In this document: piece by piece, positions 1,850 through 14,340 of the stretch
Position numbering within the stretch: position 1 is the stretch's first letter
How the letters are laid out: every line of letters starts with the position of its first letter
Source of the DNA: a plasmid
Reading direction: 5' to 3' (one strand)
DNA: 64,000 bases
Assembly (NCBI RefSeq): GCF_054482525.1
Contig: NZ_JBTHVG010000007.1
Program-made: the position numbers and the translations under genes
The notes under the pieces: model-generated
What the model was told of the DNA's origin: nothing
Databases searched by the model: none
What the model saw: the letters and a program-made list of their open reading frames with translations, nothing else

Positions 1850-4800
1850 TCAGTCTCCGCCCAGGGTTTTCTCTTTCTGCAGGTCACGAACCATATCCCG
1901 CTCCATCTGCTGCAGTCGCTCCTGCAGCAGATTTTCCCGGGCAACCTCCCGGACCGCTTCCCGCACCCGTTGTGGTTCACGCAGTACACTCTCCGGCAGC
2001 GCGGCTTCCCGTTCAGATATGGCAGACCGGTCACGCTCCAGCCCGGCAATATCCCTGACAGCCTGCTCTGTTTTGCCGTCCGGCAGGTCAGGTTTGTTCT
2101 CTGCCATTTTACGGACAATTTCATCCGCACGGCGTTCCGTTTCACGGCGGATGGCCTCTTCAGCCTGCCGCTGTGCCAGTACCTCTGCCGTGACCGGTTC
2201 GCCATTTCCGGCTCCCGGCTGAACGCTGTTGTCCGGGATATCCCCCCACACGCGACCACCGGTGATGGTTCTGGGATTCCACGGACGACCTTCACCGGCG
2301 ATTCTTACCACCACACCGCTGTCAGGATTATCACGGGCAATCCGGACACCATCCTGCATATTATCAGCCAGCAGGCTCTCTCCGTTACGGCTGCCCTGCA
2401 GGGCCACGAACTGCGCATCCCCGCTGCCTTTCACCCGGCCTTCACCACTGAAGCCCCGCAGCCCGTTTCCGTCATCCGTGGTCAGCGGGTTCAGCCAGAT
2501 ACCAGCTGACTTGCCGTTACGGTCAAAAGCCGGCAGTGCCACATACGGCTGCGGATATTTGCGCCCGGGTGCAATAAACCGTGCAGGACTGTCTCCCCCG
2601 GCCAGCCCTGCCTGACGGAGAACGGCACGGCCGGCCACCACGTCCCGCAGCTCCCGCGCCGTACTGAACAGCCGCTCTGCATTCATGACCTCCCGGTCCG
2701 ATTTCGGCTCTAGCACATCGTGGGCAGTTCCTTTCTGTACGGCATTGTTGATGGCATCCGTCCAGCCCTGACGGTTATCGGTGTACACCTGCACATGCTG
2801 CTTCATACGCGACAGGGCCACGTAGGCTGACTCAAAGCCGGCCATCAGTTTCCGGTTACCTTCCGTGCCTTCAAGCGCGATGGCAAAGGTTTCACTTGCC
2901 CCCTGCGCACCGTGGGCGGTGATGGCATAAGCCAGGTCAATATGTTGCTCTGCCCGCTCCTGACCTGGGCGAATCACCCGGATCTGCTGTCCGTCCGACA
3001 GCGTGACACTGTCACCGGAAACCGCTGTCACCGTCCAGACGCTGTTGGCCACATAACCTCGCTCCCGGTCACTCTTCGTGAAGCGCATCCGGTCACCGGT
3101 TCCCACCCGGATGGTGTCCGGGGTGTACAGTGTGACGCCTTCAGCCACCGCCTCCCGGGGCGAAATCAGCCGCGTGTTACCTTCCGCATCCTCCAGGGTT
3201 ATCAGCCCGTCATCCTTGCTGATACCGGCAATCCGGTGATACACACTATCCACCAGGGCAAGGGCATCCGGGTTATTCTCCCAGGTGGAGAGACGACGCA
3301 GTTCTCCGTCACGTATATTCGCTGTGTTCAGGACAGGCACCATGACCTGCTCTTTGCCCAGCTCACCGGCCTTTTCCCGTGCATCATGAATCATGCTGTT
3401 CAGTACGCGCCGGTCCTCATTCAGGTGTGTGACAATCAGCGTCTGCTCCCGTGCTTCCGGTGTCCTGCCGGTATAGTCGCGGACAATGGCTTCATACAGT
3501 GTCATGGGGATATCCGGGAAAGCCTCGCCTTTCAGCATCGCCTTCTGCTGCGCTTCTGCCAGTTTCGCTTCCTGGCTGTGACTGAACTCCGTCACGGAGT
3601 GCTCCGGTGCCCATGCGCCCTCCTGACGGGGAACCTGAGACGGTTTCACACTCTCAAGCCCGGACAGTGCCCTTTCCACATCCCGGTTAATCAGGCTGTA
3701 TACCGCCTCCCGCAGTTCCGGCGTCTGACGCACAATCTCCTTCATGATGACCACATCGGCAGCACTGCGCGTCTGCTGGAGACGGAAAGGCTGACCGGGC
3801 GCGATGGCCTGCAACTGGTCCGTGTCACCACTGGCCACGGCACGACCGCCACCGGCCGCAATCAGGGCGTATGCCCGTGCCATGTCGGTATTGCCCACCA
3901 TAGAGCTCTCATCGAGCAGGAACAGCGTGTTGCTGAAATTCGGCGTTTCTCCGCTGCGCTGCAGCAGCTGCGTGTCATGCAGAAAGGACGCCAGCGTCTG
4001 TGCATCCACGCCGGCGCTGCGCATCTCACCGACCGCACGGTGCGTGGGCCCCAGCCCCACGACACGGGGACGTTCACTCTCCGGCAGCATGTTCACGGCT
4101 GACATCACCGCCCGGAACTGTGTGGTCTTACCCACACCGGCATAGCCCTGCACCACCGTGAAACGGTCGGACGTTTCCAGTATCATGCGGGTAGCGGCAC
4201 GCTGTCCTGATGTCAGTTTCTCCATGAGTTCGCCAGGTACTCTCTCCATCAGTGGCGTGACCGCCTCCTTACCTTCGAGAATATGGCGAAGAATGCTCTT
4301 TTCTGCCTCATACGACGCACGGGAAACCAGCAGGCCTGTGCCATAGCCTTTTGCCACATCCACATACAGTAAATCACCGCGTTTTATCTGCGCATTGATT
4401 TCCCCTCCCAGTTCAGTAAAACTGGTTCCTTCTGCAGCAAACGACTTCGCCTCTGTCAGCAGGTCCACCATGCTGAAGGCCAGGTTTTTACTTTCCACCA
4501 CAGGAAGCGCCAGATGAATAGCCTGCTGTGCCGGCGTGTGAAGCCCGGTTTTCTGCAGACTGATAGCGGTTTCCAGCAATGTCTCACCGGCACGCGCCTT
4601 TATCTGCTCAGAAACCACCGTAAAGGAGGGATGGCGGGCAAGTTTTTCCGCAGTACGGGTTTCATCCAGTGAGGAATACAGCCGGACATCACGACCGCTG
4701 CGGGCCAGACCGTTCAGGGTGGCGTTGTCCATTGCCATCTGTGTGACGGAGGCAAAAACCTTCGCACTGTCGCTGACGGAATGCCCGGGCGTTTCCACCC

Positions 4801-7201: not shown

Positions 7202-7429
7202 ATGGAAACCACCGTATTTTTCAGCAACCGCAGCCAGGCGGTCAGACTGCCAAAAGCGGTTGCATTGCCGGAAAACGTAAAACGCGTTGAAGTGATTGCT
7301 GTCGGACGAACCAGAATCATTACGCCAGCCGGAGAGACATGGGACGAATGGTTCGACGGACACAACGTCAGCGCCGATTTTATGGATAACAGGGAACAGC
7401 CCGGCATGCAGGAAAGGGAGTCATTCTGA
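7202..7429 (+). CDS. vapB: VapB/MvpA-type antitoxin (AbrB/SpoVT fold)
   Basis: 75 aa METTVFFSNRSQAVRLPKAVALPENVKRVEVIAVGRTRII; stop overlaps the start of the downstream PIN gene (tgatg). Confidence 0.88.
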   Translation: METTVFFSNRSQAVRLPKAVALPENVKRVEVIAVGRTRIITPAGETWDEWFDGHNVSADFMDNREQPGMQERESF

Positions 7430-7827
7430 TGCTGAAGTTTATGCTCGATACCAACATCTGCATTTTCACGATAAAGAACAAACCCGCCAGCGTCAGGGAG
7501 CGTTTTAACCTGAACCAGGGGAGAATGTGTATCAGTTCGGTCACCCTGATGGAGCTGATATATGGTGCAGAAAAAAGCCAGATGCCTGAACGTAATCTCG
7601 CTGTGATCGAGGGATTTGTTTCCCGCATTGATGTTCTGGATTACGACGCTGCCGCAGCCACACACAGCGGCCAGATAAGAGCAGAACTTGCCCGTCAGGG
7701 ACGCCCTGTCGGGCCATTTGATCAAATGATCGCAGGTCATGCCCGCAGTCGGGGACTGATTATTGTGACTAATAACACCCGGGAATTTGAACGTGTGGAC
7801 GGTCTGAGAATTGAAGACTGGAGCTGA
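7429..7827 (+). CDS. vapC: VapC/MvpT-type PIN-domain toxin
   Basis: 132 aa starting MLKFMLDTNICIF (PIN N-terminal acidic residue), translationally coupled to vapB. Confidence 0.88.
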   Translation: MLKFMLDTNICIFTIKNKPASVRERFNLNQGRMCISSVTLMELIYGAEKSQMPERNLAVIEGFVSRIDVLDYDAAAATHSGQIRAELARQGRPVGPFDQMIAGHARSRGLIIVTNNTREFERVDGLRIEDWS

Positions 7828-9989: not shown

Positions 9990-10140
9990 GATGATATTCT
10001 GAAGAAAGAAAGTCAGTCGGACTGATTATTAATGATGAAAAGATTAATAACCGTTAAATTCCGGCTTCGCCGGCAACACTTCACGGTCGCACAAAGAATT
10101 TGCACAACCGCTCAGTGTTTTCATATTTATTTCGGAAACG

Positions 10141-10176
10141 CCGGGGAGAAATAAAATTTATTTTATTTCTCCCCGG
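10141..10176. terminator. perfect palindromic hairpin in the traT-traD spacer
   Basis: ccggggagaaataaaat / attttatttctccccgg arms with a 3-nt loop; lies between the traT stop and traD start. Confidence 0.45.
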
Positions 10177-10241
10177 GGTTGGACAACGAGCAAAGCGAGG
10201 CGTCAGTCAGGAGGCCGGTCAGACCAGCCTCCGGAAGATAA

Positions 10242-10973
10242 TCAGAGAATATTTGCGATTGATTTGGCCAGCTGGTCTTCGAGAACAGGCTTCGCCTCTT
10301 CAAATTTCAGGTTAACCTTGTTCGCATTTGAGACCACACGGGTCTGGTATTTATGCTGGTTACCTGTTTCAGTACTGGTCTGAATTTTCGCACCTGATGT
10401 GCCCTGACGCAGGGCGGCAACATTATCCGTTGTCACCGTTGCCTTAGTACGCTCTGCAATCTGCACATCCGTGATCATGGTATAGTTCACATCTTCCACC
10501 ATCGCATCTGCAGCCATACCCACCAGACCGGCAGCAAGGCCCACACCGAGTGTGGCACCGGCAGAATTGGAATTATATCCGGTGATACCGGCACCTAACG
10601 CTGCACCAACTGCTGCGCCTTCATAACCACGGTTCAGCCATCCCTGAGACTCCCGCAGATCCATCTTATCGGCCTTCAGCACATTCGCCTGAATCCAGTA
10701 GTAGGCTTTATCCGGAGAAGTCACCACCTGATACCCTTTTGCTTTCACAGCATCAGCAATTTTGCCCTGCAGCCCACTCATGTCTTTATCAGACGTGTTT
10801 TTGATCTGCAGAAATACCGTGCGTTCGCTGGCGGGTTCAAGCCAGATGGTCTCACTCATCTGAGTCTTCACCTCAAGGTTACGCTTCTTGATTGCTGTGC
10901 TCATCGCACCACACCCTGAAAGGGCCAGAGTGGAACTGACCAGTGTAACCATCATCAATTTTTTTGTTTTCAT
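10242..10973 (-). CDS. traT: TraT surface-exclusion lipoprotein
   Basis: 243 aa from [21 protein letters not shown] (lipobox); the called ORF is extended upstream. Confidence 0.9.
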
Positions 10974-11004
10974 CAAATTACCTTTTTTACAAACTACAGT
11001 TTTC

Positions 11005-11502
11005 TTATTGCCTGTCATAATAGTCCTGCCAACGAGTCCCAAAAGTATTTCCCGCTGAATCAAAGCCTCCATGCATAGGATATCCGGTTGAAGGGTTATA
11101 GTAGATCGTTGGGGTCTGTTCAATGCCCCCGAAGTCTAACTTTTCACTCCCATCATATTGGTCTTTGAGTTGATTTTGCCCCCATTTTTTTATGCTTATG
11201 CAACCACTAACTTGCCTTAATTCGTATAGTGTACCAATGATAAAAACCATCAGGCTTAATAACGGAGAGAGTAAGGAAGATACTGGCATCGTTATATACC
11301 AAACGCCTTTACTAAACTTAAACTCATCCGACACATCCCGTTTTTTTCGTATTTGAGAGAACAACCAGATAAACAGTCCCTGCCATAGCACTATGAAGAA
11401 CAGCATAAAAACTGTTTCGGCATTCCCCCAATCAGCCAGATAACAGGCGATAAACTGTATCACTGTTACCAGAGCAATATGGGCTAAACATCTCATTATC
11501 AT
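11005..11502 (-). CDS. traS: TraS-like entry-exclusion inner-membrane protein
   Basis: 165-aa hydrophobic protein in the traG-traT slot; assignment is by position and membrane character only. Confidence 0.5.
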
Positions 11503-11517
11503 CTCCCAAACACAGTA

Positions 11518-14340
11518 TTATTGCTTATACTTATCCTGATACTCCTTTGCCCTTTTCATCAGTTCCTGTGGACTGTCAGCCCCGGGCATTCTTTCCTGAG
11601 CCGACTTTTCTTCATTATATTTATTATTCTGAGATAATGCCTCTGTTTTATGGTGATTCTGCAGTTCAGAATACTGTCCTCTTACAATATTTTCCTCGCC
11701 ACGTATGCTGTTCTGAGTATCACCTATATTCCCTTTATATTCTGTGACCATATTATCAACCTGATGTTTTACATCATTACGGATATTACTGTCCTGCGTT
11801 CTTTGCTCAATAATGGCCTGATGTCCCTGATGGTCAGCAATAATATCCTGACTGCCTCCACCCGAAGGTACGCTCTCCATTCCTTTACCAATATCGCCAC
11901 GGGATTCCCGCCAGGCATTATCAACACCAGGCTGTATCTGTTCCTGCACAAAAGACCAGGCCATTGCCCGACGGCGTTCTGCAATCTCCGGCGAACTGGT
12001 ATTTGTCAGAATAGCTTCGGCATCCTGCGGTGCGTGTTTCATCACATACTGTGCAAACTGTTGCGACAAATCTTCGCTCATCTGCCCACTCATGCTTTCA
12101 GTACGGGATGCCATTTCAGCATATTCATGGCTGCGGGTCATATTCGTCGTGTACTGGTCGTAACTCTGTTTCGCTGAATTCAGGGCTGCAGACAGTTGAT
12201 CCACCCGGGAATCAGCATTATTGTCAGTATGGCTGCCGGATTCACTGACTTTGCGACTGGTAAAGTAATCGCTGGCCTCTTTAAAGTCCTTACTGGCTTT
12301 AGCGTCAATATCATGACGAGCATCATAGCTGGCCCGTGAACCACTGCTGGCCTGATGCGCATCATCATCACTCCAGTCAATGCCAGCCCGACCACCACCT
12401 CTAACGCCTAATCCTCCACCAACACCAAGAATTTTAGGTTTAACCCCCCATTCAGCATGAGCATCTCCATACATCCCGGCAGAAGCTCTCGTACTTCTGG
12501 ATGCCAGTTCCTGAGTCGCCTGCTCATTACTGATATTATGCGCCTTCGCATAGCTTTCCACTGCACTGCGCATACGGCTGGCCATCATGGAGTCCTGTGC
12601 ACTCATCGTACTGTCAGCACCACTGGTGACAGAGTCACTGCTCCCCCGGTTAGAACCAAACTGACTGAGCGTGTTCCAGGCACTGGCAATACTGCTGCTG
12701 AAACCATGCAGGGCACTTTCTGCTCTGTTCGACGCCTCCCGGGCCATTTCCTGTTGTGCCACTGCAATCTGACGCGTTGCATTGATACCGACCGGTAAAC
12801 GGGACATCGCTCCGCTTGCATCCATCACCATATTACCGTCACGGGTCTGTGTGGCGGTTGCGCCACTGCCGGTCTGGTACATCATCTGACCAAACGACGT
12901 GGTGCTGTTGGTGCTCCAGCTGAAGCCGTTCACGTTTTCCGTCTGCATGTTGCCGTAGGAGTAATTACCGTCAACCACACTACCTGCCGCACTGGCAGTC
13001 GGGCTGATAGCAGAGGAAGCGAAATGGCTGTACACACTGGAAAATCCGGCCCCAAGCCCCCTGACCATCATCCAGGATAATGGCGGGATCATCATGGAAA
13101 GATACCCGGCAGTGGAAGCCAGATCGGAGTATTTCAGTTGTATCTGTGAAATTTCAGAGAGCACCACCGGCGCACCATTCTGTTTCGCATAAAATGTCAT
13201 GGCACTGTTCAGAATGGCGTACAAGAGTGGCCATGACTGCAGCCACATCAGGGCAAACACATAACCTTTCAGGACAGACAGCGTCAGTTTGTTGAATACA
13301 GCCGCCAGTACCAGGAGCGGGAAAATACCGATGGCGATCCCCGTCAGGATGGTCTGCGTCATGGGCAGTGTCCGCATCGCCACATGACCGATGGAGACAT
13401 GTGCCAGACGTTGTTTCTCCATCGATGACGTGGTGGCCAGATTCACCAGGCTGGCCGAATCACCATTACGTGCGGCATAACTGGTGATCCCCTCCTTCAG
13501 CGCATTGATGGTGACATTCTGGCGGATGATCTGGCTGGCTGATTTACTTGAGCCATAGAAGTAACTGTAACTGTCGCCAATCAGCGTACTGAACAGCAGG
13601 TTAGGATCAGGGCGTCCACCAAATAGCTGCTGGGCATAATAATGCCAGGTTTTTCCGCCACTCTGTGTGTCCAGATTCAGCTTGTCTTTCAGCGAAACCG
13701 ACGCGTCCTTACAGGTTACGAAATTATTATTGCTGTCATAAACGCCCCGCAGCGGGCTGGGGCGGGAAAAAATCAGCGTGTAGGGATCAGCGGAGGCCAT
13801 CAGCTCCTCCAGCGTGTATTTGTGGTTCAGGTAAATATCCCCCATAACACAGTTCTGCACATAATCCTGGAAAAGATTGGCGATTTCCGGATTGCGGGAC
13901 AAAAAGTCGGTGCTTTTTGATACCAGTTCTGCGCCAAACAGCATCCCCGTTTTGCTGTAGGTGACACTGTCCGGTTGCGTGAAGATCATCTCGTAACTGG
14001 CCACCATTGCATGCCCGATACGGGTCGTCAGTGAAAGTGGCATCGCCAGTCCGACCGGCACATTATCCACCCGGTGAACTTTGACCAGGTCACTGTTATC
14101 AATAATCTGCACCGATGTGCGGACATTAACCAGCAGGCTGATAAGCACAAATACGGCCACCCAGCCCAGCAAATCCATCACGTTGTGCCGCTGTACCCAC
14201 ATTACGGCCACCGCGAGAACAGACAATGTGAGCGCAATTTTTTCAATGGAATCCCACGTCCTGGTTCCCATAAAGGCGGCAATGGCGTTCAGGTTATTCC
14301 GCAACCACTCACCACCGGCAATCACATAAACTTCATTCAC
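11518..14340 (-). CDS. traG: TraG mating-pair stabilisation protein
   Basis: 940 aa, size and position match F TraG; polytopic N-terminal half. Confidence 0.9.
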   Translation of the reverse strand: MNEVYVIAGGEWLRNNLNAIAAFMGTRTWDSIEKIALTLSVLAVAVMWVQRHNVMDLLGWVAVFVLISLLVNVRTSVQIIDNSDLVKVHRVDNVPVGLAMPLSLTTRIGHAMVASYEMIFTQPDSVTYSKTGMLFGAELVSKSTDFLSRNPEIANLFQDYVQNCVMGDIYLNHKYTLEELMASADPYTLIFSRPSPLRGVYDSNNNFVTCKDASVSLKDKLNLDTQSGGKTWHYYAQQLFGGRPDPNLLFSTLIGDSYSYFYGSSKSASQIIRQNVTINALKEGITSYAARNGDSASLVNLATTSSMEKQRLAHVSIGHVAMRTLPMTQTILTGIAIGIFPLLVLAAVFNKLTLSVLKGYVFALMWLQSWPLLYAILNSAMTFYAKQNGAPVVLSEISQIQLKYSDLASTAGYLSMMIPPLSWMMVRGLGAGFSSVYSHFASSAISPTASAAGSVVDGNYSYGNMQTENVNGFSWSTNSTTSFGQMMYQTGSGATATQTRDGNMVMDASGAMSRLPVGINATRQIAVAQQEMAREASNRAESALHGFSSSIASAWNTLSQFGSNRGSSDSVTSGADSTMSAQDSMMASRMRSAVESYAKAHNISNEQATQELASRSTRASAGMYGDAHAEWGVKPKILGVGGGLGVRGGGRAGIDWSDDDAHQASSGSRASYDARHDIDAKASKDFKEASDYFTSRKVSESGSHTDNNADSRVDQLSAALNSAKQSYDQYTTNMTRSHEYAEMASRTESMSGQMSEDLSQQFAQYVMKHAPQDAEAILTNTSSPEIAERRRAMAWSFVQEQIQPGVDNAWRESRGDIGKGMESVPSGGGSQDIIADHQGHQAIIEQRTQDSNIRNDVKHQVDNMVTEYKGNIGDTQNSIRGEENIVRGQYSELQNHHKTEALSQNNKYNEEKSAQERMPGADSPQELMKRAKEYQDKYKQ

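Follow-up and report, generated by a model that had tools for sequence, protein, structure and literature searches.

The plasmid analysed here carries a transfer operon of the F type, and its entry-exclusion locus raises the question of which kind of TraS protein it encodes and which donors this protein would keep out. According to the established model, which derives from F and R100-1, TraG of the donor recognises the cognate TraS of the recipient, and the TraS specificity determinant has been assigned to residues 610-673 of TraG (Audette et al. 2007, as cited in PMC9797247 and PMC7555446). A physical TraG-TraS complex has never been detected (PMC7555446). The first-pass annotation of the window, i.e., of the whole stretch of 64,000 nucleotides under analysis, had singled out the TraS-slot protein as the least F-like product of the tra operon and had proposed that such a divergent TraS could define a distinct exclusion group.

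The traS locus in an F-like transfer operon

The F-like tra operon is located entirely on the minus strand and extends from traM (around position 33286) to traX (around position 1111). The traS gene (11005-11502, minus strand), which was assigned as an entry-exclusion gene of the R1/R100 type (PF10624) from the list of open reading frames, the Pfam match and the identity to R1 and R100, is intact from ATG to stop. Its neighbours are traG, whose stop codon is located 15 nt upstream of it, and traT, whose start follows 31 nt downstream. The first of these neighbours (traG, 11518-14340, minus strand) encodes the mating-pair stabilisation protein that is also the donor-side partner of TraS, and the second (traT, 10242-10973, minus strand) encodes the surface-exclusion lipoprotein, the other half of the exclusion pair, which is F/R1-like (99.6% identical to F TraT and 99.2% to R100 TraT). 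The true traT start was placed at 10973 (243 aa) because the alignment to F and R100 TraT begins there; the 293-aa frame with a TTG start (10242-11123) represents an upstream over-extension of traT into traS and was rejected. The plus-strand frames 11192-11356 and 10888-11058, which overlap traS, were also considered spurious, because the coding gene around them is strongly conserved.

Direct reading of the sequence revealed a Shine-Dalgarno-like GGGAG upstream of traS (11503-11507, minus strand). Because this motif abuts the first ATG (0 nt spacing) but sits 6 nt before the second one (11496), TraS may start at M3, which would result in a product of 163 aa, and some TraS homologues are indeed annotated from this position. 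The gene is AT-rich (GC 0.41 compared to 0.52 for the operon). In other plasmids the identical gene is named 'entry exclusion protein' by PGAP (WP_000605857.1). A promoter and terminator scan of the region 10100-11700 yielded nothing beyond shuffle expectation, and no Rfam family was found within the traS interval. Elsewhere in the operon, an antisense RNA match inside traI (Rfam AS-traI, 4195-4271, plus strand) scored 103.7 bits, above the gathering score, and a vapB/vapC-like toxin-antitoxin pair was located between traD and traI (7202-7827, plus strand). Such a pair is present at the same position in F and in pSLT-type loci and is missing from R100 and R1.

To compare the operon with that of F, the 33 annotated tra/trb products of F (NC_002483), and also those of R100 (NC_002134), were translated and each gene was searched against the window by tblastn. 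Thirty of the 33 F products were 97-100% identical to the window, many of them 100%, and lower values were obtained for TraG (91%) and TraX (89.5%). The F TraS query gave no match at the traS locus. Direct comparisons of the two TraS proteins were equally negative, as the best E value in blastp was 0.45 and the hhalign probability for the profile of the window TraS family against F TraS was 0.4%. TraS thus stood alone among the tra products in lacking any detectable similarity to the F protein, and the claim that it is the least F-like member of the operon was borne out. High identity to F TraS, which the first-pass annotation itself had named as the result that would speak against it, was not found, and its core observation stands. 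The presence of a 165-aa membrane protein in this slot was also confirmed at the level of the open reading frame and its three hydrophobic segments. The accompanying statement that most tra products match those of F exactly in length needs a correction for TraG, which has 940 aa, as in R100, while F TraG has 938. The second least F-like product, TraX (1111-1797), aligned to F only over residues 12-240 of 248 and was 87% identical to R100 TraX.

F TraS (NC_002483.1, 88274-88795) shares the operon slot with the window protein and is likewise a small hydrophobic inner-membrane protein, whose function is the same by annotation and by experiment on F. However, it matched no Pfam family and is paired with a different TraG 610-673 segment than the one found in the window. 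Neither similarity to F TraS nor an F-type TraG partner was observed, and F TraS is best regarded as a functional analogue of the window TraS and not as a demonstrable homologue.

The R1/R100 family of TraS proteins

The window TraS matched the Pfam family PF10624 (TraS) over the full profile (positions 1-157 of 157) with 334.5 bits and an E value of 9.5e-101, the gathering cut-off being 27.4 bits. PF10624 likewise recognises the R100 slot protein, but F TraS gave no match to any Pfam family, and PF10624 therefore corresponds to the R100/R1 type. Besides the profile match, the window protein shares with this family the position between traG and traT, the small size, the predicted hydrophobic and inner-membrane character, the conserved residues and the R100/R1-type TraG partner. 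A scan against NCBIfam returned no model.

Among classical plasmids, the best match was the TraS of R1 (NZ_KY749247.1, 84246-84743, WP_000605861.1), which also has 165 aa, is encoded in the same slot between traG and traT, and is identical to the window TraS at 157 of 165 positions (95%), tail included. The eight substitutions between the two proteins are N27S, M33I, F35C, D56H, Q97R, D114N, T130P and I133T, and the last four of them were counted to the tail. The R100/R100-1 TraS (NC_002134.1, 73994-74479), which is the PF10624 member that has been studied by experiment, is 72% identical to the window protein overall. Its anchor (aa 1-100) is near-identical (about 95%) and the framework of the C-terminal motif is shared, but its tail (aa 101-165) differs in the linker and at the end. 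The same picture was observed at the DNA level. The 5' part of traS (aa 1-100) is 96% identical to R100 and 94% to R1, whereas the 3' part (aa 101-165) is 96% identical to R1 and has no alignable DNA in R100. The TraS of the Salmonella virulence plasmid pSLT (cluster P0022) belongs to PF10624 as well and has the same linker type (CISIKxW...) and C-terminal end as the window TraS, although its anchor is more divergent (73% identity overall); pSLT TraG carries S657 and D659, as does the window TraG.

The two parts of the gene correspond to different parts of the protein. The 5' part (11203-11502, minus strand) encodes the conserved membrane anchor, for which three transmembrane helices are predicted and in which one loop is rich in K/R, and the 3' part (11005-11202, minus strand) encodes a hydrophilic tail, in which a variable linker (aa 101-135) is followed by a C-terminal motif. 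The Kyte-Doolittle profile placed hydrophobic segments at approximately aa 6-24, 31-49 and 67-92; the loop at aa 50-66 contains six K/R residues, and the C-terminal 70 aa are hydrophilic. In the AF2 model, which was built from an alignment of 25 sequences and has a mean pLDDT of 69 with a low-confidence tail, helices span residues 2-22, 27-55, 65-99 and 104-116, and residues 117-130 are disordered. The topology predicted from the positive-inside rule and this model is that the N-terminus would be inside and that three transmembrane helices would be followed by 70 periplasmic C-terminal residues. A sequence search of the PDB with the TraS family profile gave only chance matches to GPCRs (E > 0.2).

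An exhaustive cluster search of 1.84 billion representatives recovered just 50 clusters of the TraS family. The family alignment A2, which reaches down to 23% identity, showed a conserved anchor, a linker that is hypervariable in both length and sequence, and a conserved C-terminal motif, NPxTGxPMxGxxDxxGNxxG (aa 136-165; 11005-11097). The motif is retained across PF10624 down to 23% identity, and no description of it was found in the literature examined. In A2, W40, F44 and N136 are invariant and C20, W25, P80, P137, G140 and G145 nearly invariant; all of these residues are present in the window TraS.

The distribution of the gene does not support the idea that this TraS is unusually divergent. 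DNA matches to traS were detected in 2160 PLSDB plasmids, of which 343 were at least 99% identical and 1308 covered at least 80% of the gene. The F-type traS was found in 556 records, and it is thus the F type that is rarer in PLSDB. For the tail variant of the window taken by itself, about 860 PLSDB records reached 95% identity or more. About a third of the complete E. coli genomes (1760 of 5426) had a traS match. Together with the Pfam score, these numbers show that traS is a genuine gene rather than a chance reading frame. Of the traS-family matches in such genomes, 18 of 1883 were chromosomal rather than plasmid-borne, and these may represent integrated F-like elements or Hfr-type insertions. 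The window allele itself is already catalogued, as it is present and named in RefSeq. Judged by its sequence, the protein represents an ordinary TraS of the R1 type rather than a new determinant of exclusion.

The plasmid that carries this allele is a ColV-type IncFIB/IncFIC virulence plasmid, with aerobactin genes (iuc/iutA), sitABCD, sopAB, psiB, ssb and hok/sok in the rest of the window. The ColV-type virulence cargo in 39001-64000, which comprises iutA/iucABCD, an MFS transporter gene, crcB, sitABCD, IS1 copies and sopAB, is 100% identical to avian and human ExPEC plasmids; some of the matching records carry a group II intron or an IS insertion that is missing from the window. The full 24.4-kb tra segment has a 100% match in many plasmids, which come from humans, pigs, dogs and poultry. 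The wide occurrence of the allele and the identity of the tra region in many plasmids argue that traS is maintained and working. It could be supposed instead that the gene is decaying, or no longer functional, and was brought in as a remnant together with a recombined traG; its AT-richness and the missing NCBIfam model might be cited for this. However, this is hardly credible for a gene with an intact frame, a ribosome-binding site and all family-invariant residues, of which hundreds of independent plasmids carry an identical copy.

Mosaic structure of traG

To map the breakpoints between F-like and other DNA, nucleotide identity to F, R100 and R1 was calculated in sliding windows. Identity to F was 98-100% from traM to about position 14015 (approximately traG codon 110) and again from about position 10985, at the traS/traT junction, which delimits an approximate non-F patch of recombinant appearance (about 10985-14015, minus strand) between traG codon 110 and the end of traS. 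Within traG, the 5' end (14016-14340) is 99% identical to F. The following stretch, 13016-14015 (codons of about 110-440), is 84-85% identical to F, R100 and R1 but 98% identical to traG in the loci carrying TraS clusters P0004 and P0087, which have a different TraS linker type. The region 11005-13015 is R1-like (94-97%), and its traG portion 11518-12565 is 96-97% identical to R1. It appears from these identities that traG is an at least three-way mosaic, with an F-like 5' end, a middle part from a third lineage and an R1-like 3' half. An antisense RNA match inside traG (Rfam AS-traG, 13536-13621, plus strand, 63.9 bits, above the gathering score) falls in the non-F mosaic segment. The backbone around the patch distinguishes this operon from that of R1. 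The tra backbone of R1 is R1-type and that of the window F-type, and traH together with the 5' half of traG is just 76-92% identical to R1 in nucleotide sequence.

The alignment of the window TraS and TraG with F and R100 that the first-pass annotation had proposed as a check was carried out, and it showed that the change extends to the donor-side partner. TraG codons 610-673 (12322-12513, minus strand), the published TraS-specificity segment, are of the R1/R100 type in the window, with 59% identity to F and 86% to R100 at the protein level, whereas the flanking residues 451-609 are 99-100% identical to F. Compared to R1, window TraG residues 595-671 are identical, and differences follow at residue 672 (Y672N) and at 681-684; Y672 and K681/S683/K684 of the window are absent from R1. 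Compared to R100, residues 610-656 are identical, and differences occur at positions 657, 659, 663, 667-670 and 672-673. Because TraS is near-identical to that of R1, TraG 595-671 is identical and the patch lies within an F-like operon, we interpret the locus as an R1-type TraG/TraS module for entry exclusion within a tra backbone of the F type, apparently introduced via a recombinant patch of about 3 kb.

Predicted exclusion specificity of the TraG/TraS module

The reading that we favour, with a probability of roughly 0.85, is that the gene is a functional traS of the R1/R100 family, which would form an R1-type module together with TraG on an F operon as a result of recombination over about 3 kb. 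In this event F traS would have been replaced completely and F traG for the most part. The protein would reside in the plasmid-bearing cell's inner membrane and block DNA entry from donors with the matching TraG segment, so that R1-type donors, including those carrying this same plasmid, would be excluded. The F TraG would probably not be recognised by the window TraS, nor would F TraS be expected to exclude this plasmid, and only the weaker surface exclusion would be shared with F through the F-like TraT. A specificity differing from that of F is expected because the protein in the slot bears no relation to F TraS and the recognition segment of TraG has changed as well; this part of the proposal of a distinct exclusion group is supported. 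With regard to R1, both partners agree at the sequence level (157 of 165 residues in TraS, and all of TraG 595-671). It is likely, although not certain, that the specificity is identical to that of R1, given that TraS differs at eight positions and TraG at residue 672 and at 681-684.

The same differences could be cited for a novel group separate from F, R1 and R100, in the sense of the distinct exclusion group suggested by the first-pass annotation: eight substitutions in TraS, and TraG Y672 and K681/S683/K684, which R1 lacks. We regard such a group as very improbable. From end to end, the TraS protein is 95% identical to that of R1, the TraG segment does not depart from R1 until after residue 671, and the KASK variant of TraG also occurs with a different linker type (in the P0004 locus), so it does not track TraS. 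Accordingly, the proposal of a distinct group was retained only with respect to F.

A different possibility is that the window plasmid shares the specificity of R100, in which case this plasmid, R1 and R100 would all cross-exclude one another via their common parts. Such common parts do exist, since TraS aa 1-100 are about 95% identical to R100 and TraG is 100% identical at 610-640, with the identity extending to residue 656. However, the TraS tail cannot be aligned with R100 at the DNA level, and the nine TraG positions of difference from R100, all of which are located between residues 657 and 673, fall inside the 610-673 segment. Reportedly, Willetts and Maule (1974) placed R1 and R100 in different exclusion groups, with R1 in a group of its own. 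Together these points make a common specificity with R100 unlikely, though less so than a new group. The four or more exclusion groups reported for F-like plasmids also speak against it (PMC8628072, in the passage that cites Willetts & Maule 1974 and Fernandez-Lopez 2016).

For the preferred reading of an R1-type module, the question arises of which part of TraS would set the specificity. Among the closer relatives, the TraS tails combine two types of linker with two types of end in a mosaic fashion, and natural chimeras such as the P0004 and P0112 types demonstrate that proteins with mixed tails do occur. We compared 16 natural TraG/TraS pairs, including those of the window, R1, R100, pSLT-type plasmids and pAPEC-O2-R. 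In all 16 pairs an R100/R1-type TraG 610-673 segment was combined with a PF10624 TraS. Linker type 1 (CISIKxW...) occurred with TraG D659 in nine of nine pairs, and linker type 2 (CVSVREW...) with E or N at position 659 in seven of seven. The R100-specific tail end goes together with T663 and NTQS at 667-670 of TraG, while TraG 681-684 assorts independently of the TraS type. As the sample is small, a distance of about 1 kb separates the loci and the sequences share ancestry, this covariation should be taken as a lead rather than a result. It is consistent with the tentative idea, which we hold to be possible but rather doubtful, that the linker (aa 101-135) of the putatively periplasmic tail sets the specificity and co-evolves with TraG residues of about 653-673, and that the C-terminal motif carries out the blocking. 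In a 2020 review the TraG-binding region of F-like TraS was described as unknown and engineered TraS chimeras as unstable (PMC7555446). If true, the linker reading would indicate where in an F-like TraS the TraG-binding region lies.

A comparable arrangement is known from the SXT/R391 elements, where the small inner-membrane protein Eex of the recipient corresponds to a short, variable stretch of the donor TraG and the two genes lie side by side, as here (PMC11493245). However, Eex is unrelated in sequence, and the Eex/TraG determinants are reported to be cytoplasmic (PMC11493245, in the part citing Marrero & Waldor 2007), in contrast to the predicted periplasmic location of the window TraS tail.

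The diversity of TraS, the cognate specificity of TraG and TraS and the existence of several exclusion groups in F-like plasmids are all already established. F and R100 TraS are only about 17% identical and have almost no shared sequence (PMC7555446), multiple traS variants occur in E. coli collections (PMC9465074), and of 256 F-like plasmids only about 30% have a homologue of F TraS (PMC8628072, in the passage citing the two studies named above). The practical value of the finding is modest, and nothing in it is new in principle. What it illustrates is that typing of the replicon or backbone as F-type does not predict exclusion behaviour. As regards entry exclusion, this ColV-type plasmid should be able to enter cells that carry F TraS, and its host should accept F. 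Its exclusion partners would be R1-like plasmids, which bears on the question of which IncF plasmids co-infect and recombine.
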